Shown one piece after another: positions 375-14,437 of a DNA stretch of 14,851 nucleotides (positions are counted from its first letter, which is position 1; each line of letters opens with the position of its first letter). The position numbers and the translations under genes are program-made. Source of the stretch: Gemmatimonadota bacterium (GTDB lineage: Bacteria > Gemmatimonadota > Gemmatimonadetes > Gemmatimonadales > GWC2-71-9); assembly GCA_036679645.1 (NCBI GenBank), contig JAZDCY010000049.1:1-14851 (forward strand). Direction: 5' to 3'. The notes beneath the pieces were generated by a model that had not been told where the DNA came from, searched no databases, and saw only the letters and a program-made list of their open reading frames with translations.

Positions 375-439
375 GGCGCGACTCCCTGTGGAATCTGTGT
401 GCCAACTTTGCAGGAATCAACGGAACGGGCAAGGATGGG

Positions 440-445
440 TATGAT
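440..445 (+). promoter_or_regulatory. Putative sigma70-type -10 element (TATGAT) for the TonB-dependent receptor
   Basis: TATGAT (5/6 match to TATAAT) in the short divergent intergenic region, 7 nt upstream of ATG 453. No convincing -35 element. Confidence 0.35.
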
Positions 446-452
446 AGGGGCG

Positions 453-2522
453 ATGAGAGACGATGCGGAGTCGCGCGACCAAACCCCGGGCGTGAGCCCG
501 TGGTTAAGGGCGATCCTAGGGGTGGCCCTCGTTATCGGCGTCTGGCATCCGCTCGTGGGTCAGGAGCGGCCCCTCCCCGCCGATTCGGCAACCCCCGTCG
601 AGCCGATCGTGGTCACGGTCACGCGAGTTGCCGAGACCGCGTCGCGCGTTCCATATGGTCTGTCGGTGCTTGGATTGCGTGACTTGGTCCGCGCTTCGTC
701 TGGAACGTCATTGGCTGGGGCGTTGGCCCTGGTGCCCGGTGTCACCGCACAGAACCGATTCAACCCGGCGCAGGACGAGCGCATCTCGATCAGAGGGTTC
801 GGTGCGCGAGCGGCGTTCGGCATTCGCGGCGTGCGGATTCTTCTCGATGGCATTCCGCAGACGCTGCCCGACGGCCAGGGACAGCTCACCAACATCGACC
901 TGCGCCGGATAAGCCGGATCGAAGTTCTCCGCGGTGTGTCGTCGAGTCTCTACGGCAACGCGAGTGACCCGCTTGCGCGGGCGGATCTCGAGCCGGAGGC
1001 TCGCGTTTTCTATGGGACGGACGACCTCTTCGTCACCGATGCCGGACTCACAGTTCCGCTCGAGAGCGGCTGGCTGGCCGTTCGGGGTTCGCGGACCAGA
1101 GGTGACGGGTTCCGGACACAGAGTCGGTTCGAGACGTGGCGCGGCAGTGTGCGGGCCTCGCTGCACGTGGGTGCGCGCACTCAGGTGCTCGCGGCCGTTC
1201 ATCTGTCGGACACACCCCGCGCCGAGGATCCCGGCGGGTTGAATGCGGACGAGTTGGCGGCCGACCCGGCACAGGCGCATCCGGGTCATGTCAGCGTGGA
1301 CGCACACAAGGACGTGTCTCAGGGCCAGGTAGGCATCACGGTGCGTCACGCAATGCGGGGTGGTGGTCGCGTCAACGCAACGATCTTTGGTCTCCGGCGC
1401 GATCTGTTCAACCAGTTGACGTTTGCCAGGATCGATCTCGAGCGATGGGCCTACGGTGCACGCGCCGTCGCCTCGTTCCCACTTCCGGTGGACGTCCCTG
1501 CCGAGGTGAGCGTTGGGGCCGATGTCCAGTGGCAGCGCGACGATCGGCGGAACACGGAGCCTGACGGGAGCGCGGTGACGCGAGATCAGCTCGAGACGGT
1601 GCGGGAGTTCGGTCCGTTCGTCCAGTTCCGTCTTCAGCCGGTCTCACGCGTCGCACTCACCTTAGGGGGGCGGTTCGACGATGTGCAGTTCCAGGCTGCC
1701 GACCGACTCATAGCTGACGGAGATCAGTCGGGTGTCCGGTCGATGTCGGCCCTGTCGGGGACGGCCGGTCTGGCGGTCGAAGCCCATCCGGCACTCACCG
1801 CCTACGCCAGCGTCGGAAACGGATTCGAGGCTCCCACCACGACGGAACTGGCCAACCAGGCGGACGGGAGCGATGGGTTCAACAGGGATCTCGACCCGCA
1901 GCGAGCGACCCAGTTCGAAGTGGGCATCCGGGGCAAGCGCGGGCCGGTGAGCTATGACGTGGCGGTCTTTCAGGCCAACGTGACCGGCGCGCTGATCCCG
2001 TTTGAGGTTCCGTCGGTTCCAGACCGCACCTTCTTTCGCAACGCCGGCAAGACGCGTCACCGGGGCATCGAGGTCAGTGCCCGAGCCCAACCTGTCAGCG
2101 CCGTATGGCTCACGGCCGCGTACACGTTCATGGATCTGGAATTCATCGACTTCGTAACCGAGAGCGGCGCGCTGGACGGCAACACGATCCCGGGCGTACC
2201 GCGACATTTCTTCTCCGGCGCGTTGCGCGTTCAGCGAGGCCCAGTTCGGTTGCAGGCCGACGTCCGCGTGTCATCATTGGTCTTCGTGAATGACGCGAAC
2301 GCGACGAAGACCGACGGGTGGTTTGTCGCAGACGTTCGGGTGGACGCCGAGGTGACGGCGGGTGGTTTCCGGGTGGTGCCGTACGCCGGTGCCGAGAACC
2401 TGTTCGACGAACGCTACGTCGGGGCCGTTCGTGTCAATGCGGGTTTTGGGCGGTTCTACGAGCCCGCGGCGGGGAGGAGGGTCTTTGTGGGCGTAGAACT
2501 GGCGGGAGGTGACGGGCGATGA
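453..2522 (+). CDS. TonB-dependent outer-membrane receptor, YncD/PqqU-like
   Basis: Signal peptide (SPWLRAILGVALVIGVWHPLVG-Q), TonB-box-like EPIVVTVTR, and plug motifs QNRFNPAQDERISIRGFGARAAFGIRGVRILLDGIPQTLPDGQGQLTNIDL and IEVLRG..SLYGNAS. Barrel motifs DPGGL, GFEAPT, ENLFDERY and YEPAAGR. The start is probably ATG 453 or GTG 492, not 9; that upstream part is the antisense shadow of the minus-strand gene. Confidence 0.9.
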   Translation: MRDDAESRDQTPGVSPWLRAILGVALVIGVWHPLVGQERPLPADSATPVEPIVVTVTRVAETASRVPYGLSVLGLRDLVRASSGTSLAGALALVPGVTAQNRFNPAQDERISIRGFGARAAFGIRGVRILLDGIPQTLPDGQGQLTNIDLRRISRIEVLRGVSSSLYGNASDPLARADLEPEARVFYGTDDLFVTDAGLTVPLESGWLAVRGSRTRGDGFRTQSRFETWRGSVRASLHVGARTQVLAAVHLSDTPRAEDPGGLNADELAADPAQAHPGHVSVDAHKDVSQGQVGITVRHAMRGGGRVNATIFGLRRDLFNQLTFARIDLERWAYGARAVASFPLPVDVPAEVSVGADVQWQRDDRRNTEPDGSAVTRDQLETVREFGPFVQFRLQPVSRVALTLGGRFDDVQFQAADRLIADGDQSGVRSMSALSGTAGLAVEAHPALTAYASVGNGFEAPTTTELANQADGSDGFNRDLDPQRATQFEVGIRGKRGPVSYDVAVFQANVTGALIPFEVPSVPDRTFFRNAGKTRHRGIEVSARAQPVSAVWLTAAYTFMDLEFIDFVTESGALDGNTIPGVPRHFFSGALRVQRGPVRLQADVRVSSLVFVNDANATKTDGWFVADVRVDAEVTAGGFRVVPYAGAENLFDERYVGAVRVNAGFGRFYEPAAGRRVFVGVELAGGDGR

Positions 2523-2552
2523 TGGAGGCGATGATCGCCCCTATCACCGCCC
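2514..2552. terminator. 18-bp imperfect hairpin between convergent stop codons (possible bidirectional terminator or 3' stabiliser, no U-tract)
   Basis: GGGCGATGATGGAGGCGA-tga-TCGCCCCTATCACCGCCC: 15/18 Watson-Crick pairs, and 17/18 paired on the minus-strand RNA when G-U is allowed. Confidence 0.5.
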
Positions 2553-4808
2553 TACTCTCCCCCCATTCAGCTGGTTCAGCATGCGCCCCGCCAGATCGGT
2601 CGCAACTGTGGCGAGTCGCAGACGCTCCGTCGCCACGCTGTCGGATAGTTGTTGCACTATCTGCGCGTAGCCCCCGTACGTGACGTAGTACAGCGAGAGA
2701 ATGTTGTTCGACGGCCCGTCGACCCAGCCGCGGGGGCGATCGCGTGCGGCGCTCTCCGGATGGTACACGTCAAACAGCAGGCGCTCAGTCCGGTCCAGGT
2801 CCAGCCAACCAATTCCCGCGATGCGAAAGATGTTATCGCTCTCCTCGACGGGCTCCGGCTTCAGGCGTCGCACGAATCCCTCCGCCAGGAGGTGCGCGGT
2901 GAGGCCCAGCTGATCGGCCGTCCCGCCGGTCGTCCGCGCGAAGTAGACCGGGCGTTTGCCCAAGTTGTTCCGGATGAGTTCTAGAGTGATCAGGTCGGCA
3001 CGGCTGTAGCGACCGGGCTCGAGCACTGCCTCTAGCGATCCCACGCGAAACACGCTGCGTTGCGCGACCGGCCAGACGAGCGGCAGGGCATTCACCTCAG
3101 AGCCGTCGAACTCGCGGTACGGCGGAGCGGCGTTCACGATATCGAACGGCTCTACCTCACGGCGGATCAGCTGGCGCAGGTGCCACTCGGTGTTCATGAG
3201 CGACTGGTTGAACACGAGCACGTCGCGTCGAACGTGCTCCACCTCCTGCGCGTACCACAGCGGGAAGAGATCATTGTCGCCGGCCGTGATGAGGATGGCG
3301 TATGGCTCGACCGATTGCAGCAAGTCGACCGCGAAGTCGCGCGCCAGCGTCTCGCCCGCCCGCGGCGCGGTAAGGGTGTTCCCGCCAAGTGGAATGAGGG
3401 CGACGAGCAGTACCGATGATGCCCCTATCCACGCCACTGGTGCGTCCAGCCTGGTTCGGAGCACGGTCTGCAGTTGCGCATACAGGGCACCCAGTCCCAT
3501 AGCGACCCAGAGCCCCAGGAGTTGGAACGAGATGACGAAGAAGTAGTCTCGCTCGCGTACTTCCCGGTCGAGCGCTTCACCCGGCCGGTAGGAATAGCCG
3601 TACCGGAAGTTCAGGTAATAGATCAGAACGACGGTGACGGTCAGCATGAGGCCGATCATGGCGAGCGCGGCGCGGCGGTCACGCATCCACTGGACAACTA
3701 CCCCATAGAGGGCAAGCATGCCAAAAAACGCCGCCACGATACGACCGGCCCGAACGCTCCAGTCATGCCCGAACTGCCACGAGAAGTACTGCAAATAATT
3801 GCCGAGCTGTGAAGGAAAATCGGCCATGCGGACGGAGAGCGGCGGCTTCTGGTATTGCTCGCGTGCCAGCACGCCGAGCAGCGCATCCCACGTCGTGGGC
3901 TCGCCCTCGTTGATGGCGGGGAACGCGGCGGCGCGCAGCGGTAGGAAAACGAAATTGAGTGAGATCCCGACGACGGCCGCACCGATCGCCGCATAGAGCA
4001 ACGGGCGGGCAAACTCCTTAGGGTCCCGCCACGCGGCGTACGCCAGCGTGCCCACGATGGCAATCACGGACAGCGTTCGCCAGTCGGTTGGTCCGCTCAC
4101 GATGGCGGTCCACTTACCCGTAATGGCGAGCCCGCCAAAGACGGCCAGCGCGATCACCCACGGTCGCGTCATGTCCCGCCAATCCGTGAGCGCCACGTAC
4201 GTCAGCACGGCGGGCAACACCAGGACGCCCATCATGTGGTTCGTCGACGTCAGCACGAGCAGGTAGCCGATCAGCAGCAGGATCTTGTCCCGTGCCAACC
4301 CGCGCGGGAGGTCCGCCCAGCGCACGACCAACCAGAAGATGACCGCGATGAAGAACAGGCTCACCGTGTAGACCTTCGCGTTCACTACCGACTGGTTCCA
4401 CACCGTGAACGTCGTGGCACCGACCAACACGCCTGCGAAGGCCGCCGCACAGCGCGGCCAGGCATCGGCAATCACCGGTCGCAAGAACCGGTGGGCCACC
4501 AAGAACAGGAATCCCGACGCCACGGCGCTGGTGAATGCCGCGAAGAGATTGATACGCAACGCGTAGTGCGTCGCGAGGGGTAGTTGGCCCCACACGTTGG
4601 CCATGAGCACGAACAACGGGCTGCCGGGTGGGTGGGGGATACCGAGCACCTTTGCCGCGGCGATGTACTCGGATGTGTCCCAGAACTGGGTCGTCGGCGC
4701 GATCGTGAACGCGTAGAGCGCGAAGATCGCGGTCGCGACGACGGCCGCAATGCCGTAAGGCGGCCGTTCGCCTACCTCGTTTGTCATCGGTTGCACGTCG
4801 TCGGTCAT
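2544..4808 (-). CDS. DUF2723 / TMEM260-family GT-C membrane glycosyltransferase (putative protein O-mannosyltransferase)
   Basis: N-terminal TM helix followed by APTTQFWDTSEYIAAAKVLGIPHPPGSPLF (DxxE and HPPG.PL family motifs). Also VWNQSVV.AKVY, many TM helices, INEGEP, REQY.KP, EVRERDYFF and LITAGDNDLFPLWYAQEVE. SD GGAGA 5 nt before ATG 4808; double stop TGA-TAG. Confidence 0.88.
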   Translation of the reverse strand: MTDDVQPMTNEVGERPPYGIAAVVATAIFALYAFTIAPTTQFWDTSEYIAAAKVLGIPHPPGSPLFVLMANVWGQLPLATHYALRINLFAAFTSAVASGFLFLVAHRFLRPVIADAWPRCAAAFAGVLVGATTFTVWNQSVVNAKVYTVSLFFIAVIFWLVVRWADLPRGLARDKILLLIGYLLVLTSTNHMMGVLVLPAVLTYVALTDWRDMTRPWVIALAVFGGLAITGKWTAIVSGPTDWRTLSVIAIVGTLAYAAWRDPKEFARPLLYAAIGAAVVGISLNFVFLPLRAAAFPAINEGEPTTWDALLGVLAREQYQKPPLSVRMADFPSQLGNYLQYFSWQFGHDWSVRAGRIVAAFFGMLALYGVVVQWMRDRRAALAMIGLMLTVTVVLIYYLNFRYGYSYRPGEALDREVRERDYFFVISFQLLGLWVAMGLGALYAQLQTVLRTRLDAPVAWIGASSVLLVALIPLGGNTLTAPRAGETLARDFAVDLLQSVEPYAILITAGDNDLFPLWYAQEVEHVRRDVLVFNQSLMNTEWHLRQLIRREVEPFDIVNAAPPYREFDGSEVNALPLVWPVAQRSVFRVGSLEAVLEPGRYSRADLITLELIRNNLGKRPVYFARTTGGTADQLGLTAHLLAEGFVRRLKPEPVEESDNIFRIAGIGWLDLDRTERLLFDVYHPESAARDRPRGWVDGPSNNILSLYYVTYGGYAQIVQQLSDSVATERLRLATVATDLAGRMLNQLNGGRVGR

Positions 4809-4851: not shown

Positions 4852-6387
4852 CTAGTGTCGAAACTGGCGGCGTCCGGTCATGACCATGGCAACGTTCATC
4901 TCGTCGGCCGCGGCGATGACCTCCTCGTCCCGTTTAGACCCGCCGGGTTGTATGATCGCCCCGATACCAGCGTTGGCCGCTTCTTCCACTCCATCGGCAA
5001 AGGGGAAGAAAGCGTCCGAGGCAAGGACGGCCCCGTTGGGATCGTGACCCTCCTTGCGCGCCTTGTGCACGGCAAGGAACGACGCGTCTATGCGGCTCAT
5101 CTGTCCCGCGCCGATACCTATTGCCGCTTCCTTCTTGGCGAGCAGAATGGCGTTCGACTTCACCGCCGCGATCGCCGCCCACGCAAACCGAAGATCCCGC
5201 CATTCGCCATCCGTCGGGACCTTTTTCGTCGCGACCCTCCATTGGCTCTCGTCATGCGTGAAGCGAAACCGATCCTGCGCCAGAAACCCGCCCCGTATGC
5301 GCTTGAAATCGAGTGAAGGCGTCTCCGGTGCGGGGGCGCGCGGCCACTCGATCACACGCAGGTTCTTTTTCTTCCGAAAGATCTCCAGTGCCTCGTCGTG
5401 AAAGCGCGGTGCCACGACGACCTCCACAAAGAGATCGCGCATTGTCTCCGCGGTCTCGGCGTCCACGACGGTGTTGTACGCTACCACCGACCCGAACGCC
5501 GAGGTCGGATCGGTTGCCAGTGCCCGGCGATAGGCATCTGCCGTGTTGGCCCCCAGCGCGATGCCGCATGGTGTCGTGTGCTTGATGATCGCGCATGCGG
5601 CCCGGTCGTCCCACGGCTCGACCGCGAGCAGCGCTCCCTCGATGTCGATGAGGTTGTTGAACGACAGCTCCTTGCCGTTCAGCTGAAACATGGCACGCAC
5701 CCCGCGCGGCTCGTCCACGCCGTAGAGCGCGGCACGTTGCGTCGGGTTCTCGCCATAGCGCAACGGCATGAGGCGCTCGAGCGCGAGGCCCAGGCGGGGG
5801 GGCAACTCGTCGCCACCCGCGTTCAGGTACCCGGCAATGGCCGCGTCGTAGGCTGATGTATGAGCGAATACGTTGGCCGCCAGCTCCCGGCGGAATTGTT
5901 CGCTCGGGCCGCCGTCGTCGAGCGCAGACACGACCGCGTCATAACTGCCCGGATCGACAACCGGGAGAACCGCTGTGTGGTTCTTGGCTGCGGAGCGGAG
6001 CATGGACGGGCCGCCAATATCGATCTGCTCGATCGCGTCCTCGAACCGCACGTTCGGTTGGCCGATCGTAGCCTGGAATGGATAGAGGTTCACCGCGACC
6101 AGGTCGATCGGTAGGATTCCGTGGGCCGCGAGCGCGTCCATGTGCTCCGCGAGATCACGTCGCGCGAGCAGTCCGCCGTGGATCTTGGGGTGCAACGTCT
6201 TCACGCGGCCGTCGAGCATCTCCGGAAATCCCGTGACCGCGTCCACCGGAGTGACGGTCACGCCTTCCTCCTGCAGCAATTGCGCGGTCCCGCCTGTCGA
6301 GATGATCTCCCAGCCGCGCTCGGCAAGCGCGCGGGCAAAGGCGGCGACACCCACTTTATCGAAAACGGAAATCAGCGCGCGTGGCAC
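4852..6387 (-). CDS. purH: Bifunctional AICAR transformylase / IMP cyclohydrolase
   Basis: Motifs [77 protein letters not shown], and the C-terminus TGRRQFRH. Start is more likely GTG 6387 (SD GGGGAG, 5-nt spacing) than 6393. Confidence 0.98.
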
Positions 6388-6401
6388 TGTCACTCCCCCG
6401 G

Positions 6402-7073
6402 TTAGTGCGGTAACCGCTCGTGAGTACCAAGCAGGTCGGTGATCCGAGCGGATTCAGGTGTAGCGTTGAACGCGTCTCCCGGAGCCGGCAACCGCACGAC
6501 GCGACCGGCGCGTGCGGCGGCGAGCACGACTGCCGGGAGCAATTGGTGTTCCGTGGCGAGCACGCGATCGCGCAGCATGTCGGGCGTGTCGTCGGCCAGG
6601 ACCGGAACGGGCCACTGCGCGAGTATCGGTCCCCTGTCGTACTCCGTGGTGACGAGATGCACCGTGGACCCGCTCACGGTGGCACCGGATTCCAGCACCG
6701 CACGGTGCACCCGCATGCCGTACATCCCTTTGCCACCAAACGACGGTAGAAGCGCGGGATGGATGTTGATCATGCGGCCGGCGTACGCTTCGACGACCGG
6801 TCCCGGAATGAGCTTGAGGTACCCCGCGAGGACGATGAGGCCAGCGGTGACCTGTGTCAGCGCCGCCAACAGTGCGTCGCCGTCGTCGGGATCGGTGATG
6901 ACGTGCGTCGCAACTCTCGCCTGGCGTGCGCGTGCCAGGGCGCCCGCACCTGGTTTGTCGCTTGCAACGAGTACGACCGCGGCCGGCTCAGGGGGAACAC
7001 ACGCGTCGAGCAGGGCCTGCAGGTTGGTGCCGGATCCGGACGCGAGGACCGCGACCCGCAACACGTCAGCCAT
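6402..7073 (-). CDS. purN: Phosphoribosylglycinamide formyltransferase
   Basis: Motifs VAVLASGSGTNLQAL, VLAGYLKL, NIHPALLPSFGGKGMYG, TVHLV...YDRGPILAQ and EH.LLP. Lies directly upstream of purH. Confidence 0.97.
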   Translation of the reverse strand: MADVLRVAVLASGSGTNLQALLDACVPPEPAAVVLVASDKPGAGALARARQARVATHVITDPDDGDALLAALTQVTAGLIVLAGYLKLIPGPVVEAYAGRMINIHPALLPSFGGKGMYGMRVHRAVLESGATVSGSTVHLVTTEYDRGPILAQWPVPVLADDTPDMLRDRVLATEHQLLPAVVLAAARAGRVVRLPAPGDAFNATPESARITDLLGTHERLPH

Positions 7074-9192
7074 TGCACGCGGCCGGGTCTACCGGACCCG
7101 GCTCCGTCAGAACGCGCAGGACGAACGCTCCTGTTTGGCCGGGCGCGACCGACGACGCGGCGACCCGATAGGTTGCCGTCTCCGGGAACGTGAGCGTGAG
7201 TCGTGCATTGCAGGCACCGGCGCCGTCGTCGTCTGTCTCGAGGTCGAGTCCCGCGCCGGTTGCGATCAGAATCGCGTCGAATTCGTCGGACAGCAGCTCG
7301 ATCGTAACCGACTCCCCGGCCGTTCCGTCGATTTCGTAGAGCAACACATAGCTGCCCTCGATTTGTGATGCCGATACGGAGTCGAGATCCGCATGGAGTT
7401 CCGTCCCGAGGGCAATGGTTCCCGTGACAGGCAACCCGTCGAGTTGTGCGCTCATCTCGTCCGCATCGGGATCGGAAGTGTTGCACCGGGCCACGCCGGG
7501 ATCCGTACCCGGGGTTACGAACAGTGAGTAGGGACCGGTCTCCCCCGGGCTGAACGTGGTCACGACGACCCGATATGACCCGTCTTCCGGAAAGGTGACG
7601 ACGAGGCGCGAGTTGGAGTCGTCACCGCAATCGTCATCCATGGCATCGAATGCGAGTCCGGGGCCGATGACGAGCACGACGGCGTCGAATGCGTCCGAGA
7701 TGAGGTCGATCGTGACCATCTCACCGGCGTGCGCCGTGTACTCCCACGTGTGGGCGTACGGGCCTTCGCCCAACAGACTGGCGTTCTCCTCGGAGATCGT
7801 GCCGTTTCCCTCGCTCTCCGCCGAGAGTGTTCCCTGGGGCGGCAGCGCCATGAGTTGAACGACCGCTTCATCCTGCATCTCGTCGCTGCATTCGCCGCCG
7901 ACAGGTGGGCTTGCCTCCCCGGGGGCGGCCGCGCTCAGCGTGAAGGTGCCCGTAGCGGCGACGAACGAACTAACCACTACGCGGTACGTACCGGTCTCGG
8001 GGAACGTCACGGTGATGCGAGCGTGACATTGCCCGCCGCCGTCGTCGTCGGTGAGCGGGATCCGCAGCCCGGGACCGGTGAGATGCAAGAAGGCGTCGAA
8101 CTCATCCGAGACCAGGTCGATTGTCAGTTCGTCGGCGAACGTGGCGTCGAGGGCGTAGGCGCGGACGTGCGCACCGCTCGGCAACGTTGGATCGTCTGAC
8201 TCGAGCGCTTCGGCAAGCGGCCGGCCAATTACCAGGCGTCCTGACTCGGGCAGCGCGGCCAGCACGGAAGCGGGCGTATGCGCGGTGCGACACGCCTCGT
8301 CCGCCGCCGGCGGTGGCGCGTCGGTGACGCGGATCGCGTACGCGCCGCGGTGATCGTCGCCCAACGAGCCGGCCAGGATGAGGTAGGTCCCGTCGGTCTC
8401 CAGGTCGAGCGTGAGCCGCGCGTCACAGTAGCCCGCACCGTCATCGTCGATCAGGGCCGCCTGCGTGCGTGGTGGGAGTACCGTCAGATACGCATCGACG
8501 TCGAGCGAGATGAGATCGATGGTGACGCTCGTTCCGGCGCGACCCTCGAGCCCCCAGATTTGAACCCGACGGCCATCGGGGAGTTCAGGGTCCTCGTCGG
8601 TGAAGACGCCGTTGACGCTGTCACCGAGTGCTACCGTGCCGACACGGGGCAACAGCAGTACCGTGGCGGTATCGAGGGCAGGTCCCTCGGGCTCGGAGGT
8701 CGCGATCCCGGAACACATCTCCTCGCTGGGTGGGTCGGGGGTCTTGGTGACCCGCAGGGTAAAGGCGCCGACCGCTCCGGCGCTGACGGAGTTCACGACG
8801 ACCACGTAGGAACCGGTATCCGCCAGTGTATGGGTGATGCGGGCGTTGCAGCCACCGGCGCCGTCATCATCGGTGAGCGGATTGGTAATGCCCGGCCCGA
8901 CGAGCATGAGAAACGCGTCGAACTCCTGCGAGATCAGGTCGACGGTGACCGTCTGCCCGGCTGCCTGGAGTGCCCAACCCTGCGCGAATGTTCCGTCCGG
9001 CATGGGGAAGTCGCTCGCGGCGAGTACGCCGGCGTGCTCGCGGCCCAGCTCGAGGCGACGGTCCGCCACCGGGAGCGATCGGAACTCTTGGCCGGCGAGT
9101 ACGGTGGCCGTCCCCAGAGTCATGCAGGCCGCGATCGCCGGAGGGCACCAGCGCAAGGATAAGCGCATTCGTTGCTCGTGGTTGGGGTTCAT
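7066..9192 (-). CDS. Secreted protein made of five tandem PPC-like (pre-peptidase C-terminal) beta-sandwich domains, no catalytic domain
   Basis: Signal peptide ending around TATVLAG-Q. Five ~135-140 aa repeats with consensus VTIDLISxxFDAxLxxxGPG...DDDGAGxCxARLTxTFPExGxYRVVV...TGAFTL. ATGA overlap with the selA stop and an 8-nt overlap with purN. Confidence 0.85.
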   Translation of the reverse strand: MNPNHEQRMRLSLRWCPPAIAACMTLGTATVLAGQEFRSLPVADRRLELGREHAGVLAASDFPMPDGTFAQGWALQAAGQTVTVDLISQEFDAFLMLVGPGITNPLTDDDGAGGCNARITHTLADTGSYVVVVNSVSAGAVGAFTLRVTKTPDPPSEEMCSGIATSEPEGPALDTATVLLLPRVGTVALGDSVNGVFTDEDPELPDGRRVQIWGLEGRAGTSVTIDLISLDVDAYLTVLPPRTQAALIDDDGAGYCDARLTLDLETDGTYLILAGSLGDDHRGAYAIRVTDAPPPAADEACRTAHTPASVLAALPESGRLVIGRPLAEALESDDPTLPSGAHVRAYALDATFADELTIDLVSDEFDAFLHLTGPGLRIPLTDDDGGGQCHARITVTFPETGTYRVVVSSFVAATGTFTLSAAAPGEASPPVGGECSDEMQDEAVVQLMALPPQGTLSAESEGNGTISEENASLLGEGPYAHTWEYTAHAGEMVTIDLISDAFDAVVLVIGPGLAFDAMDDDCGDDSNSRLVVTFPEDGSYRVVVTTFSPGETGPYSLFVTPGTDPGVARCNTSDPDADEMSAQLDGLPVTGTIALGTELHADLDSVSASQIEGSYVLLYEIDGTAGESVTIELLSDEFDAILIATGAGLDLETDDDGAGACNARLTLTFPETATYRVAASSVAPGQTGAFVLRVLTEPGPVDPAACNG
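7072..9081 (-). repeat. Five diverged intragenic tandem domain repeats (~410 nt period)
   Basis: The DDD(G/C) motif recurs at residues ~108, 249, 382, 519 and 654 of the 708-aa ORF. Repeats are clear at protein level and diverged at DNA level. Confidence 0.85.
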
Positions 9193-10310
9193 GCCACCGC
9201 GGCGGCAGCCGCGGCCGCGACGGTGTCGAATTCGTCGTCGCGCAGTGTCCGGACGTCGAGCAGCACCGCTCCGTCACCGGCACGCGCGATGACCGGTGGG
9301 TCATGGCGCCGCAGCGCCGTGAGGAAGTTATCAGGATGGGCCGCGGGAATCACCACGAGGGTGGTCGGCAGATCCGCTTCGGGGAATGCGCCGCCGCCGA
9401 CCGACGACTGACCGGGCGCCGTGGTGACGCCGATCTTCCGAGCGAGCCGACGCGCGCGGCGCTTCAGGAGATCGTGTGGTGCCGTCAGCATCGCCAGCGT
9501 GGGGATCTCCCGTATGGCGGCATCCCGATCACGATATAACGCGAGCGTCGCCTCGAGTGCGCCGATGGTGATCTTGTCCGGGCGCAGCGCCCGCGCGAGT
9601 GGATGGGTCGCGACTTGGGAGATCGTCTTCTGCGGGCCGGCGATGATCCCCGCCTGAGGGCCGCCCAGGAGCTTGTCACCCGAGAAGACCGCGACGGCCC
9701 CAGCGGCGACGCTGTCTCTGGCCATCGGCTCGCCAGAGAGGCCCCACGGGGAGAGATCGACGAGGAGTCCGCTGCCCACGTCGTGAATCACCGGGATGCC
9801 TCGCGGTTGCATGAGCCTCGCGAGGTCGTCGATGGTACACTCGGTCACGAAGCCGGAGAGCGTGAAGTTCGATCGGTGGACCTTGAGCGCGCACCGTGTC
9901 CGCGGTCCGATGGCGGCCTCGTAGTCCCGCAGCCGCGTGCGATTGGTCGTGCCGACCTCGACCAGCACACTGCCACTACGCGCGAGGATATCCGGGATCC
10001 GGAACCCCCCGCCGATCTCGACCAGTTCGCCACGGGATACGATCGTCTCGCCGTCGGCCGCAAGGGCGCTCAGCGTCAGAAACACGGCAGCGGCCGCGTT
10101 CGTGACGACCAACGCGTCCTCCGCACCGGTCAGCTCCCTAACAAGGGCACTCGTATGTCGTTGCCGCGAGCCGCGGCCACCGGCGTCTAGATCGTACTCC
10201 AGCGCGCTGTACCACGCGCCGTCGAGCCCAGCGCGGATGGCCGACTCCGCAAGCGGGGCGCGCCCGAGATTCGTATGGAGAACGACACCTGTTGCGTTCA
10301 CCACGCGCAC
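9189..10310 (-). CDS. selA: L-seryl-tRNA(Sec) selenium transferase (selenocysteine synthase), catalytic PLP domain; separated from its N-terminal domain by a frameshift
   Basis: Motifs VVNATGVVLHTNLGRAPL, LEYDL..G.RGSR, VSRGELVEIGGGFRIPD, EVGTTNRT, LKVHRSNF, FSGDKLLGGPQAG (PLP lysine), RALRPDK and VGGGAFP. The homologous frame extends to ~10325 (ERRSL) but has no proper start there. Confidence 0.93.
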   Translation of the reverse strand: MRVVNATGVVLHTNLGRAPLAESAIRAGLDGAWYSALEYDLDAGGRGSRQRHTSALVRELTGAEDALVVTNAAAAVFLTLSALAADGETIVSRGELVEIGGGFRIPDILARSGSVLVEVGTTNRTRLRDYEAAIGPRTRCALKVHRSNFTLSGFVTECTIDDLARLMQPRGIPVIHDVGSGLLVDLSPWGLSGEPMARDSVAAGAVAVFSGDKLLGGPQAGIIAGPQKTISQVATHPLARALRPDKITIGALEATLALYRDRDAAIREIPTLAMLTAPHDLLKRRARRLARKIGVTTAPGQSSVGGGAFPEADLPTTLVVIPAAHPDNFLTALRRHDPPVIARAGDGAVLLDVRTLRDDEFDTVAAAAAAAVA

Positions 10311-10471
10311 CAGCGAGCGACGTTCCCGCCGCCGTGTGCTCGCGCGGTAGCGAGCGTGTCGCGTATGGCCTGTACCACCACGGCCCGCGGCGATGTGGCA
10401 GTGAGACCCGCCTCTTTCGCATCGGCCATGAGCGTGTTCACCGCCGGAAGCCGTCGCCGCCGGTCGGTCAT
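10298..10471 (-). pseudogene. selA: N-terminal fragment of SelA (tRNA-Sec-binding domain), out of frame with the rest of selA
   Basis: ATG 10471 overlaps the upstream TGA (ATGA) and reads MTDRRRRLPAVNTLMADA...PRAVVVQAIRDTLATARAHGG, matching the SelA N-terminal R.LPSVD.L...R..V..A.R..L...R pattern. It runs out of frame at ~10326-10333 and stops at 10298-10300. Confidence 0.75.
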
Positions 10472-11754
10472 GGGGGCGGTGGTTCCTCGGGCGCCTCGGG
10501 CACGATCAGGAGCGTGCGAGACTCCGCCACGGCACCGTTGACGTTCGCGACGACCGCGTCGATTACATAACGCGCCCCCGGCACCAGCGGGGTGGCCAGG
10601 CGGATCACCCATTCGTCGATCAAGGCGGGCCGTTCGAGGAGGAGACGTTCGATGCGGGTCGTGTCGGCAGCGGCTTGGGTGGTATCCTGGGCCGCCTCTG
10701 CGGGCCTTGCACGATCCGCATCCCGACGCGCGTCCGTCGTATCCGCCGCGGCCGAATCGTCCGGCGCGACAGCGGCGACAGTGTCCGCGGCCGCGAGGGA
10801 GTCGGCCAGCGCCTGCGCTGCAACTGAATCCGCCACGCGCGCCGCCTCGATCTCCACCGCATGAACGGAATCGTAGACCGTAGGTGTCCAGACCGCCGCA
10901 AGCGCAATTGGGAGGGAATCGGGAAGAATACGTACGGTGATGACCGCGCTGTCGGCGGGTCCCGGTTCCAGGTTCTGACTGAACGTGACGCGCACGGTGA
11001 CGCTGTCGACCAGCGTCGTCTGACGCAGCTGCGGCCCGGCGGAATCGTGCGCGAAGGCCCAGAACACGCTCGTCGCGGTCGAGTCGACGGTCACCGCCAA
11101 GGAATCGTAGGACTCACGCCGGTCGCGTTGCCGGTTGCCGTTGCCGTCGACGGTTGCAAACACCTGGTACTGGCCTAGGGGGAGGGCCGTGAACGTGAAA
11201 TCGCCGGCCGAATCTGTTTGCGTCACGTAGACGAGCGAGTCCGGCATCAGTACGGCCTCGACCAGGCTCTGCGCGGAAGCTCGTTGTGCGGCCCAGTCGA
11301 TCACGGTGCCGGTGTAGGTCGTCGCCGGGATCGGCCCGCCGGTGGAGAAGATCAGCGTGACCCGGTCCTTGAGTCGGTTGTTGCTCAGGTCGGTCATGCC
11401 CGGCAGCAGCGTCAGATGGTACACGGTGCCAGGGAGCCACCCGCCGCCGGGACGCACTGTCAGGCGGCTCCGTTTCCACGACACGTTGATCTTTTCCGGT
11501 CGCGGCGAGAGGAGCACCAGGTTGTCGAGCCCGCCTCCGGACTGCTCGCTGATCACCTCGTCGAACTGGAACTCCGCGTCGCCGTCGAAGTCCGGGAGCA
11601 CCGCGCCTGAATCGGGGCGCGTTGACAGCAGGACGGGCGGCGCGAAATCCTCCGGGCCGCCCGGCGGGTTTCCCATGGATGCGCAGCCGGCGAGCAGAAC
11701 TAGCAGCCCAGGACGCGCAGCTTCTCGGAAAGCGTGGCGCGTTGGTCTCGCCAC
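10468..11754 (-). CDS. Ig-like (Big_5-type) domain lipoprotein with an Asp-Ser/Thr-rich, Ala-rich C-terminal stalk
   Basis: GTG 11754 with a strong SD (GAAGGAG, 5-nt spacing). Lipobox LLAG-C (Cys24, 11683-11685) followed by CASMGNPPGGPEDFAPP..., F.FDE.I, W.PGTVY.L...G.TDLSNN, L.FSTG, and a second beta-sandwich with DGNGN. This family pattern is typical of FCB-group bacteria. Confidence 0.82.
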   Translation of the reverse strand: MARPTRHAFREAARPGLLVLLAGCASMGNPPGGPEDFAPPVLLSTRPDSGAVLPDFDGDAEFQFDEVISEQSGGGLDNLVLLSPRPEKINVSWKRSRLTVRPGGGWLPGTVYHLTLLPGMTDLSNNRLKDRVTLIFSTGGPIPATTYTGTVIDWAAQRASAQSLVEAVLMPDSLVYVTQTDSAGDFTFTALPLGQYQVFATVDGNGNRQRDRRESYDSLAVTVDSTATSVFWAFAHDSAGPQLRQTTLVDSVTVRVTFSQNLEPGPADSAVITVRILPDSLPIALAAVWTPTVYDSVHAVEIEAARVADSVAAQALADSLAAADTVAAVAPDDSAAADTTDARRDADRARPAEAAQDTTQAAADTTRIERLLLERPALIDEWVIRLATPLVPGARYVIDAVVANVNGAVAESRTLLIVPEAPEEPPPP

Positions 11755-14405
11755 GTACGCTCCTTCTCGCGCTCGCGTGCGACCACCTCTGCCGGCGCGC
11801 GGCTGGTGAATTGCTCGTTGGCGAGCTTCTGTTCCTGGGCGGCCAACCTGCGATCGAGTCCGGCGAGTTCCTCCGTCAGTCGCGTGCATTCTTTCTCGAT
11901 GTCAATGGCGTCGCCGAGGGGAACGAAGACAGCAGTGCCGTCGCCGAGCACCGCGTGTGCTCCGGTGCCCTCAGCGTCCCCGTCCAGGACGAGTGGGTCG
12001 ATCTTGGCGAGCCGCTCGATCGTGCGTTGCTCCGCATTGAAGGCCTCGGTGGCATCGAGCGAGGCCGGCTGCACCACGACCCGGACCGTTCGGTTCGGGG
12101 GTACCCCGTACTCGGCACGCACGTTTCTGACGGCTCCCACCAGGGCCTGTACGTGCGCGAACTGCGCTTCCGCTTCCATGTCGATCAGCGCGGGGTTGGG
12201 GCTCGGCCAGGCCGAAGCCGCGAGCATGGTGTCGTGCGCGCCGGGGAGATGATCCCACAGGGCCTCGGTAATGAACGGCATGACCGGATGCAACAGCCGC
12301 AACGCCGTTTCGAACACGTGGAGCAGGATCGCGCGGGCAACCTCCGTTCCGCGCTGCGTGCCGTAGAGCCGTGGTTTCACCTGCTCGGCGTACCAGTCCG
12401 CCAGCGCGCCCCAGACGAAGCGGTAGACGAGGTTCGCGGCATCGTTCAGGCGGAACCGTTCGATGGCGTCGGTCGTGTCGGCAATCGCGCGCTGGCACTG
12501 CGAGAGGATCCACCGATCGGCCAGCTCGAACTGAGCGGGGTCGAGGGTGTCAACCGGGGTGGCTGTCCCGTCGGTCGCCGACAGAACGAACCGACCCAGG
12601 TTCCAGAGCTTGTTCGCGAAGTTCCGGCCGGCGGCGAAAGTCCCCTCGAGATCGGCCCGATCCATGATGATATCGGTGCCTGCGGCTGCACCGGCGACCG
12701 ACGTGAATCTCAGTGCGTCGGCGCCGAACAGGCGCACGATGTCGAGCGGGTCGATGCCGTTGCCCAACGACTTGCTGAACGAACGATGCTGCGGGTCGCG
12801 CACCATCCCGTTCAGGTAGACCGTGTCGAACGGCACCCGGTCGAGGAAATGGAGCCCGCCCATCACCATGCGAGCTACCCAGAAAAAGATGATATCGGGG
12901 CCGGTGACAAGCGTGTGTCCGGGGTAGAATCGATCGAGGTCCACCGTCCGTTCCGGCCAGCCGAACGTGGCGAACGGCCAGAGCCATGACGAGAACCACG
13001 TGTCCAACACGTCCTCATCCTGTCTCAATGCGGCGCCACCGCAGGCGGGGCAAGCCTCGGGCGCGGTCTTCGCAACCGCAATATGGTCGCAGCCCTGTGC
13101 CTCACAGTACCATGCCGGTATCCGGTGTCCCCACCACAGCTGTCGCGAGATGTTCCAGTCCCGGATCTGGGTGAGCCATTGCTCGTACACACTGCCCCAG
13201 CGTTCCGGAACGAAACGGACCGCGCCCTGGCGGTGCGCCTCGAGCGCGCGACTGGCGAGCGGCTTCATCTTCACGAACCACTGATCGGAGAGCCGCGGCT
13301 CAACCGGAGTGTGGCAGCGGTAGCAGTGCCGAATGGCGTGCTCGTAGGGTTCGATTCCTTCGATCAGGTCTTCCGCTTCCAGCAGCTCGACAACCCGCTT
13401 GCGCGCCTCGTAGCGGTCGAGTCCGCGCAGCGCCTTTGGCACGCGGTCGCTCTGGGCCATCGCGGCATCTTCATCGATGATCACCGGTGGGTCCACGTCG
13501 GGCAGGATGTCGTGGGCTATGTCGAAGTCGGTTGCGTCGTGCGCCGGCGTCACCTTCAGCATTCCCGTGCCGAAGTTCGTTTCGACCAGCGTGTGCGTGT
13601 GGATCGTGATCCGGGTTCCGGAGAGCGGAATCTCGACCTCGCGTCCGGTCAGCGCCGCGAACCGCTCATCGTCGGGATGGTGCACTACCGCGACGTCACC
13701 GAACATCGTCTCGGGCCGGGTAGTCGCGACAATGATGTACTCCCCCTTTCCCCCCTCTTCGGGACCCGGGGATCGCGGGCGCAGACGATAGCGAATGTGG
13801 TACAACTTTCCTGCCGTATCCTCGAATTCCGCTTCTTCGTCGGACAACGACGTGTGGCAGCGGGGACACCAGTGGATCACGCGATGTCCGCGGTAGATTA
13901 GTCCCTGCTCGTGGAGCGTGACAAAGACGTGAACGACGGCTTGACAGTACGCCTCGTCGAACGTGAACCGGGTTCGCGACCAGTCACACGACGCGCCGAT
14001 CGCCCTGAGCTGTTCGAGGATCGTCCCGCCCTTCTCGCGTACATGCTCCCACACGCGTTCGACGAAGCGTTCGCGCCCCAAGTCTTGTCGCCGCTTGCCC
14101 TCTTTCGCGAGCTGGCGTTCGACTACGTTCTGTGTGGCGATACCCGCGTGATCGGTACCCGGGAGCCACTCGGTCTCGCGTCCGCGCATGCGCTCGAAGC
14201 GGATGAACACGTCCTGGATCGTGTTGTTCAGGCCATGTCCCATGTGCAGCACGTCGGTGACGTTCGGCGGTGGGATGACTATCACGTATGGGTCCCGGTC
14301 GGACGCCGGGTCCGCCACGAACACGCCCTTATCGAGCCAGCGCTGGTATACGCCCGCCTCGATCTCGCTCGGGTTGTACTGCGGCGCAAGTTGTGTCGTC
14401 GTCAT
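11700..14405 (-). CDS. valS: Valine--tRNA ligase
   Basis: PPPNVT..LHMGH (HIGH), GTDHAGIATQ, DWSRTRFT, ATTRPETMFGD, GTG.LKVTPAHD, DWNISRQLWWGHRIP, DEDVLDTWFSS, DIIFFWVARM, SFSKSLGNGIDP (KMSKS variant), NFANKLWN, LHPVMPFITE, and a C-terminal coiled coil KLANEQF...AP.EVV. Start is ATG 14405 (SD-like GGCGGA). Confidence 0.98.
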   Translation of the reverse strand: MTTTQLAPQYNPSEIEAGVYQRWLDKGVFVADPASDRDPYVIVIPPPNVTDVLHMGHGLNNTIQDVFIRFERMRGRETEWLPGTDHAGIATQNVVERQLAKEGKRRQDLGRERFVERVWEHVREKGGTILEQLRAIGASCDWSRTRFTFDEAYCQAVVHVFVTLHEQGLIYRGHRVIHWCPRCHTSLSDEEAEFEDTAGKLYHIRYRLRPRSPGPEEGGKGEYIIVATTRPETMFGDVAVVHHPDDERFAALTGREVEIPLSGTRITIHTHTLVETNFGTGMLKVTPAHDATDFDIAHDILPDVDPPVIIDEDAAMAQSDRVPKALRGLDRYEARKRVVELLEAEDLIEGIEPYEHAIRHCYRCHTPVEPRLSDQWFVKMKPLASRALEAHRQGAVRFVPERWGSVYEQWLTQIRDWNISRQLWWGHRIPAWYCEAQGCDHIAVAKTAPEACPACGGAALRQDEDVLDTWFSSWLWPFATFGWPERTVDLDRFYPGHTLVTGPDIIFFWVARMVMGGLHFLDRVPFDTVYLNGMVRDPQHRSFSKSLGNGIDPLDIVRLFGADALRFTSVAGAAAGTDIIMDRADLEGTFAAGRNFANKLWNLGRFVLSATDGTATPVDTLDPAQFELADRWILSQCQRAIADTTDAIERFRLNDAANLVYRFVWGALADWYAEQVKPRLYGTQRGTEVARAILLHVFETALRLLHPVMPFITEALWDHLPGAHDTMLAASAWPSPNPALIDMEAEAQFAHVQALVGAVRNVRAEYGVPPNRTVRVVVQPASLDATEAFNAEQRTIERLAKIDPLVLDGDAEGTGAHAVLGDGTAVFVPLGDAIDIEKECTRLTEELAGLDRRLAAQEQKLANEQFTSRAPAEVVAREREKERTWRDQRATLSEKLRVLGC

Positions 14406-14437
14406 TTGCGTTCCGCCGGCCACGCTGCCGAGCCGGC

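Follow-up and report, generated by a model that had tools for sequence, protein, structure and literature searches.

A sequon-rich Ig-like lipoprotein of Gemmatimonadota as a likely substrate of Bacteroidota-type O-glycosylation

In this study, we analysed a lipoprotein encoded in a 14,851-nucleotide stretch of DNA (the window) from a member of the Gemmatimonadota, and its best reading is that it is likely to be heavily O-glycosylated at Bacteroidota-type sequons. This reading is favoured because the motifs exceed shuffled expectation, are conserved in orthologs and follow a genome-wide compartment bias, because family members in Bacteroidota are glycosylated according to mass spectrometry (MS), and because O-glycans at such motifs can be seen in a Gemmatimonas structure. 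The lipoprotein is very probably a core Gemmatimonadota protein that is O-glycosylated at most of its 16 motifs by a general extracytoplasmic system of the Bacteroidota type.

The gene (10468..11754, minus strand) is an open reading frame of 428 aa that probably starts at the GTG at 11754, 5 nt after an AGGAG; a promoter consensus was looked for at the gene and none was found. Residues are numbered here as in P0001, the 423 aa translation that starts five codons later, at 11739. A predicted signal peptide II (11683..11754, minus strand) carries the lipobox L-A-G-C, whose Cys (codon 11685-11683) is kept at 90% or more in 114 aligned homologs; the mature part has 405 aa and a computed mass of 42.9 kDa. 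The signal-peptide region at 11700-11754 (minus strand) shares 55 nt with the end of valS, read in a different frame, and similar N-termini are found in several close orthologs. The mature chain begins with a Big_5 Ig-like domain (11341..11643, minus strand; Pfam PF13205, E 1.1e-10), which holds a single extended-motif DSG at 11613-11605, outside the span of the 16 sequons. It is followed by a CarboxypepD_reg/Cna-B-like beta-sandwich (11125..11313, minus strand), assigned from the model and from a PF13620 match slightly below the cut-off (E 1.7e-7). The lipobox, a PPGGP motif and the succession of a Big_5 and a Cna-B-like domain are the features of the FCB Big_5 lipoprotein family, and all were found. 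As a lead, look-alike protein clusters occur in Fibrobacterota, Ignavibacteriota, Chlorobiota, Zixiibacteriota and Rhodothermota.

The AlphaFold model (114 sequences, pLDDT 92.6) consists of three beta-sandwiches, the third of which is broken by a long helix together with a stretch modelled at low confidence. The first half of this third Ig-like domain (10885..11049, minus strand; strands 220-266 of the mature chain) carries sites D232, D245, D263 and D274, and the second half (10504..10650, minus strand) comprises model strands 356-394. Between them is inserted an Ala-rich stalk (10651..10884, minus strand), modelled as a helix and then a low-confidence segment. The function of the lipoprotein could not be read from its structure, because a sequence search against solved structures returned no homolog (best E 0.021) and a fold search with the model gave only generic tandem beta-sandwich matches (TM 0.13-0.21). 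An NCBIfam profile search gave no match.

The first-pass annotation of this DNA had counted by hand about 35 Asp, 17 D[ST] and 16 sequons plus a DSG, and our recount agrees exactly, down to the motif breakdown: P0001 has 35 Asp, 17 D[ST] and 16 D[ST][AILVMT] (DSL and DSA four times each, DSV and DTT three times each, DST and DTV once each, with one DSG in addition). The sequons span 10657..11241 (minus strand), from D167, whose codon starts at 11241, to T361 (10657). When P0001 was shuffled 20,000 times at fixed composition, as had been proposed, the mean was 2.39 sequons (sd 1.45) and the maximum 9, against 16 observed (p = 5e-5, the floor of the test). No other protein among the 3,177 of the genome has a higher sequon density, and mirror motifs in P0001 are at no excess (E[ST] 2, N[ST] 0, [ST]D 3). 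Eight sites are in the stalk (D290, 304, 313, 319, 328, 333, 352 and 359), and the cluster of seven motifs that had been placed there is found at residues 304-361. The label 'mucin-like' suits only this stalk (78 aa with 26 Ala, 12 S/T, 3 Pro and about 33 residues predicted to be helical); the other eight sites lie on folded Ig-like domains, and no long Pro/Thr/Ser-rich unstructured domain of the mucin kind was found in the lipoprotein.

The cytosolic neighbours that had been set against the lipoprotein are less telling. PurH (4852..6393, minus strand) indeed has no D[ST] among 34 Asp, but this is weak evidence alone, as zero also arises in 5.0% of 5,000 shuffles. For ValRS, encoded by the upstream neighbour valS (11700..14423, minus strand), the 'about 4' motifs of the annotation become 5 (2.4 expected, p = 0.09). 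Two other exported proteins in the window, a TonB-dependent receptor and a PPC-repeat protein, are not enriched (1 sequon against 2.4 expected and 3 against 4.5, respectively); therefore the claimed compartment bias cannot rest on the window, and it is the genome-wide data that carry it.

Some other features of the window deserve mention. The best plasmid-collection matches of the TonB-dependent receptor (405-2522, plus strand) include proteins named PqqU. The PPC-repeat protein (7066-9192, minus strand), between selA and purN, is acidic and exported, and paired Cys occur in each of its several PPC repeats; a counterpart was found in two of the 25 Gemmatimonadota loci compared, and D[ST] is under-represented in it (5 against 10). 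The selA gene (9189-10471, minus strand) is split by a frameshift, with its PF12390 N-terminal domain (E 3.4e-9) and the PF03841 remainder in different frames; around 10298-10330 it lacks about 17 codons that two relatives have. It is either a pseudogene or an assembly error.

For the genome-wide comparison, exported and cytosolic sets were defined by our own gene calls (3,563 genes) and our own heuristic localisation classes, leaving out 1,384 ambiguous, transmembrane or short genes. The 656 exported proteins contain 1335 sequons where 822 are expected, a ratio of 1.62 (1.54-1.71), against 0.91 for the 1,523 cytosolic proteins, and removing the top 30 proteins lowers the exported ratio to no less than 1.40. 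Enrichment in exported proteins is seen for A, I, L, V and T as third residue, D[ST] before other residues being depleted, and the mirror motifs are flat (E[ST]x 0.97, N[ST]x 0.78). Furthermore, within 53 membrane kinases the ratio is 1.72 on the outer side and 0.80 on the cytosolic side. Statistically, if not chemically, the sequon excess is confined to extracytoplasmic proteins and domains.

Other genomes were sampled with the identical statistic and a simpler gene caller, the control samples being small (17-49 exported proteins). Two other Gemmatimonadota samples show the exported excess (G067, 1.59; G032, 1.88), and in 600-kb samples of two further families the proteome as a whole is not enriched (G058, 0.82; G061, 1.10). 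The lipoprotein orthologs of G058 and G061 nevertheless carry 25 and 20 sites, and it is possible that these families have fewer substrates or select against sites. Three proteobacterial controls, in which no TMEM260-like protein was matched, have no exported excess (Cupriavidus 0.74, Novosphingobium 0.74, Methylobacterium 0.94); the positive control, Prevotella, gave 1.21 overall and 1.61 for DS[AILVT].

The lipoprotein is a core gene of the phylum, with a match in 148 of 151 genomes and exactly one match in 144, usually in the gene order valS, lipoprotein, selA, purN, purH. Conservation of the motifs in orthologs, a check suggested at the outset, was confirmed, and they are retained even in unalignable regions. 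All 35 close orthologs, a set that includes the window's own, have 8-19 sequons (1.1-2.6 expected). In 20 of 20 orthologs sampled across the phylum there are 3-28 (0.7-3.0 expected), and in four of four homologs from Bacteroidota (E 4e-8 to 8e-16) 14-18 (about 2 expected). Summed over 150 representatives, 1,817 sequons stand against 267 expected; such totals over homologs are descriptive, because homologs are kin and statistically dependent. Orthologs of families f6 and f7 at loci L062-L067 carry 20-28 sequons, and their tails contain near-tandem repeats.

Glycans have been reported in relatives on both sides of the phylum boundary. In P. intermedia, a Big_5 lipoprotein (BWX39_01155) has seven MS sites and is among the three most glycosylated proteins (PMC10897501), and the T. 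forsythia counterpart (Tanf_02405) has seven MS-mapped glycosites; both are tied to the P0001 family through their peptides and Pfam label. By eye, the P. intermedia glycopeptides can be matched to parts of the Prevotella homolog of P0001, and site 176, in the folded second domain, falls within a few alignment columns of D167. In Gemmatimonas phototrophica, cryo-EM led to O-glycans being modelled at Thr108 of cytochrome c (PufC) and Ser331 of RC-M (PufM), with a core of mannose, glucuronic acid and rhamnose like that of Pedobacter heparinus (PMC8849296; PDB 7O0U). The accessible text of that paper gives the glycans in its methods, assigned by map fit without MS, and mentions neither a sequon nor 'Bacteroid'. 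From the PDB chains, the two residues lie in D107-T108-L109 (PufC) and D330-S331-F332 (PufM). Thus, a glycan on the Ser or Thr of the motif occurs within the phylum, at two sites in another species and by map fit rather than MS. PufM has a terminal tail with 3-5 sequons in four of five phototroph loci, and other PufM chains compared have 259-332 residues against 367 and 392. Among phototrophic Gemmatimonas-like genomes, the periplasmic C-terminal tails of PufM and PufC at L217-L220 have repeated D-S/T-X, and PufM at L216 has none. The structure paper on G. groenlandica makes no mention of glycosylation, mannose or sugar.

How far glycosylation reaches is a matter of degree. Modification could be partial, mainly in the stalk and tail, or the Gemmatimonadota system could serve few proteins rather than being general; we regard this as a possible but distinctly less probable account, and it overlaps the preferred one. 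Families f6 and f7 show no proteome-wide excess, sites at turns of folded domains may be hard to reach, and seven sites have been mapped on the Bacteroidota members where the homologs have 14-18 motifs. Nevertheless, the persistence of the excess without the top 30 proteins of the genome and its recurrence in G067 and G032 speak for a general system, and the very high glycosite occupancy reported for P. gingivalis and the modified site 176 in a folded domain of the P. intermedia protein argue for broad occupancy.

Under heavy O-glycosylation, the lipoprotein would be exported and then lipidated at the lipobox Cys, and a membrane GT-C enzyme would read D-S/T-(small or aliphatic residue) in the periplasm and move a lipid-linked, mannose-rooted glycan with a Man(Rha)-GlcA core onto Ser/Thr. 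With a glycan like that of G. phototrophica (about 0.77 kDa by our own arithmetic), full occupancy would add approximately 12 kDa to 42.9 kDa. The glycans might lend stability to the Ig-like domains and make the stalk stiffer and better shielded; in B. fragilis and P. gingivalis, too, stabilisation and shielding have been suggested speculatively. We infer that the periplasm is a more likely location than the surface, where the first-pass annotation had allowed for either, and the protein may be a membrane-anchored periplasmic spacer or scaffold. Mannose substituted at O2 and O4 is bound poorly by ConA. The lectin, which had been suggested as an assay, would therefore serve badly here, as the core mannose of the G. 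phototrophica glycan carries substituents at both positions (PMC8849296).

The transferase could plausibly be the YfhO-like protein of genome contig C42, a serious but uncertain candidate; a TMEM260-like protein is a contender of the same standing, and some other enzyme is rather doubtful. YfhO-like and TMEM260-like proteins might also work one after the other. The YfhO-like gene (C42:1032-3431) belongs to a family with matches in 60 of 61 genomes, 41 of them over the cut-off, and its product aligns over its full length with the ahcY-adjacent YfhO of Bacteroides (22%, E 2e-27). It lies downstream of rpoN in a cluster (L190:320-6453, on C42) of a GT2, a GT4, an LPG-synthase-like membrane protein, the YfhO-like GT-C and a second GT2, whose best match, below the cut-off, is a polyprenyl-phosphate sugar synthase. 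The LPG-synthase-like protein and the sugar-synthase-like GT2 flank YfhO in all 15 loci of class Gemmatimonadetes and are absent at five YfhO loci from other classes. Because LPS-like genes (recognised by eye) adjoin the cluster, as does rpoN, and YfhO modifies lipoteichoic acid in Bacillus, service in LPS modification is a live alternative for this cluster. A preprint (10.64898/2026.07.27.740950) predicts the YfhO family as the Bacteroidota transferase and, in its accessible part, describes the enzyme as still unidentified in July 2026. P. gingivalis failed as a discriminator between the enzymes: the preprint gives it no YfhO, but a supplement lists PGN_1968 as a putative YfhO/PMT, along with the DUF2723 protein PGN_0192. 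The Prevotella control (one replicon) has a YfhO match and no PF11028 match. Elsewhere in the genome, a GT-C with a PMT_2 match (C35:54338-57063) adjoins a GT2 and type IV pilin genes and may concern pilin glycosylation, and the three Wzy_C matches are all on contig C38.

The window itself encodes a TMEM260-like (DUF2723) GT-C membrane protein (2544..4808, minus strand; PF11028, E 5.6e-40), a member of the candidate transferase family. It matches human TMEM260 (PDB 9rql, E 1.6e-17) with D45 aligned to D52, a residue required for activity (PMC10214176); judged by sequence, it has both the PF11028 domain and the catalytic Asp of GT117/TMEM260. In our literature search, which reached few subscription journals, no paper joining TMEM260 with Bacteroides was found. 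That this gene encodes a dedicated transferase of the lipoprotein is unlikely. It shares the strand of the lipoprotein gene, 5.7 kb downstream, has the catalytic Asp aligned, is nearby in five of five f2 loci and five of five of L001-L005, and represents a family found in 150 of 151 phylum genomes and in one of 14 controls, B. thetaiotaomicron. However, selA, purN and purH lie in between, and linkage is found in two Gemmatimonadales families only: the gene is absent from nine f5-f8, five f10-f12 and one f3 loci, over stretches of 20 kb or, for some, shorter. The lipoprotein homologs of Bacteroidota have other neighbours, the preprint prefers YfhO, and the genome has a second paralog (C40:5791-7389; 532 aa as called, near a contig end and with its C-terminus seemingly out of frame).

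A more basic objection, that the motifs stay unmodified and serve the Ig-like folds structurally, as Asx/ST turns and helix caps, is very improbable, even though parts of the protein lend themselves to it. In the model, five sites are in hairpin turns (D167-SL and D176-SA of the second domain, D219, D245 and D274) and one each at a strand start, in a D-T-x-x-P type linker before the third domain and at a short helix; three are in or at the span of the long helix and the remainder in the low-confidence stretch. Asp 167, 176, 212, 232, 245 and 274 are 95-100% conserved, and D176 is in a Cna-B-like D-x-x-G turn that is present in NOMO2 too. Since these predicted turns include several near-invariant Asp, sites D167, 176, 219, 245 and 274 may be structural in addition to being modified.

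Structural turns do not account for the eight sites in the helix or disordered stalk, for the absence of an exported excess in three proteobacteria or for the glycans at the motif in Gemmatimonas. Among 113 homologs, the Big_5 domain, although just as rich in beta strands, shows no surplus (50 sequons against 42 expected), whereas the second domain has 363 against 56, the third 322 against 54 and 22 against 9, the stalk 488 against 44 and the tail 219 against 20. The stalks, 25 to 128 residues long, cannot be aligned, and yet 548 of 648 stalk Asp (112 homologs) are followed by S/T, as are 804 of 962 Asp in stalk and tail together (113 homologs). Of the 808 motifs there, 798 have A, T, L, V, S, I, G, M or F as third residue, none has Pro and four have Arg, although Pro and Arg make up 15% and 12% of these regions. 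Such a restriction resembles an enzyme recognition motif and matches the extended O-glycosylation motif of Bacteroidota (PMC8729774; PMC10897501).

Finally, a DNA-level effect, by repeat expansion or by selection for GANTC sites created by Asp-Ser codons, is extremely improbable and was rejected: although the gene has 13 in-frame GANTC against one out of frame and enrichment is stronger for Ser encoded by TCN (2.31) than by AGY (1.72), there is also an excess of D-T sites and of D-S sites with AGY codons, the codons at motifs are mixed, no tandem DNA repeat crosses the stalk, and the excess is specific to frame, compartment and third residue.

That this lipoprotein family is a substrate of heavy glycosylation was already known in Bacteroidota; two points are new against the literature searched, namely extending the system to Gemmatimonadota and locating the glycans of G. 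phototrophica within the motif. Among the titles and opening abstract lines searched, with few subscription journals covered, no paper describing such O-glycosylation in Gemmatimonadota was found. If the reading is true, this sugar-tagging system, so far described as belonging to Bacteroidota, extends to a second phylum and its origin moves deeper, hundreds of glycoproteins are predicted in a phylum abundant in soil and water, and the motif accounts for two glycans reported without one in the structure paper. Furthermore, the lipoprotein offers a 16-site reporter substrate, and the search for the enzyme narrows to families common to both phyla. More tentatively, sequon O-glycosylation might be ancestral to the FCB superphylum, with the lipoprotein as its most constant substrate, the YfhO cluster as the missing core pathway, YfhO or YfhO plus a TMEM260-like protein transferring, and horizontally gained photosystem subunits fitted to it by growing sequon tails.

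Several known systems can be compared with this one. PglL-type O-OTases of Neisseria, Burkholderia and Acinetobacter likewise target Ala-rich disordered stretches of exported proteins, but without a defined sequon. Human TMEM260 (GT117), an O-mannosyltransferase that the window protein matches with D52 aligned, differs in serving IPT domains, and the accessible text reports no D-S/T-X sequon for it (PMC10214176). The O-glycans of the G. phototrophica RC-dLH come from the same phylum and order-level group and sit on periplasmic Thr/Ser in D-T-L and D-S-F, although there are two sites, on photosystem subunits rather than a lipoprotein. The Big_5 lipoproteins of Bacteroidota share the N-terminal lipobox-PxGGP-Big_5-Cna-B architecture (four homologs) and a sequon that follows the first strands in the second domain, and seven MS sites each are known there; they are longer (610-640 aa against about 405) and 22-26% identical, and lie beside DUF3108, whereas the Gemmatimonadota protein has an Ala-rich stalk in its third domain and lies beside valS. 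An lfg-like locus of flippase and glycosyltransferases is a feature of O-glycosylation in Bacteroidota. The general system of B. fragilis, T. forsythia, P. gingivalis and P. intermedia belongs to another phylum, the outer sugars differ in the one Gemmatimonas structure, and two Gemmatimonadota families sampled lack a proteome-wide excess. However, it acts on exported proteins only, uses the motif D-(S/T)-(A/I/L/V/M/T), extended by S/G/C/F, and has a core of the Man(Rha)-GlcA type found in G. phototrophica, and YfhO and DUF2723 proteins occur in both phyla. The D-[ST]-[AILVMT] motif with its restricted third residue is the mark of a Bacteroidota-type system that the lipoprotein bears, and on the features compared the Gemmatimonadota system belongs with that of Bacteroidota.
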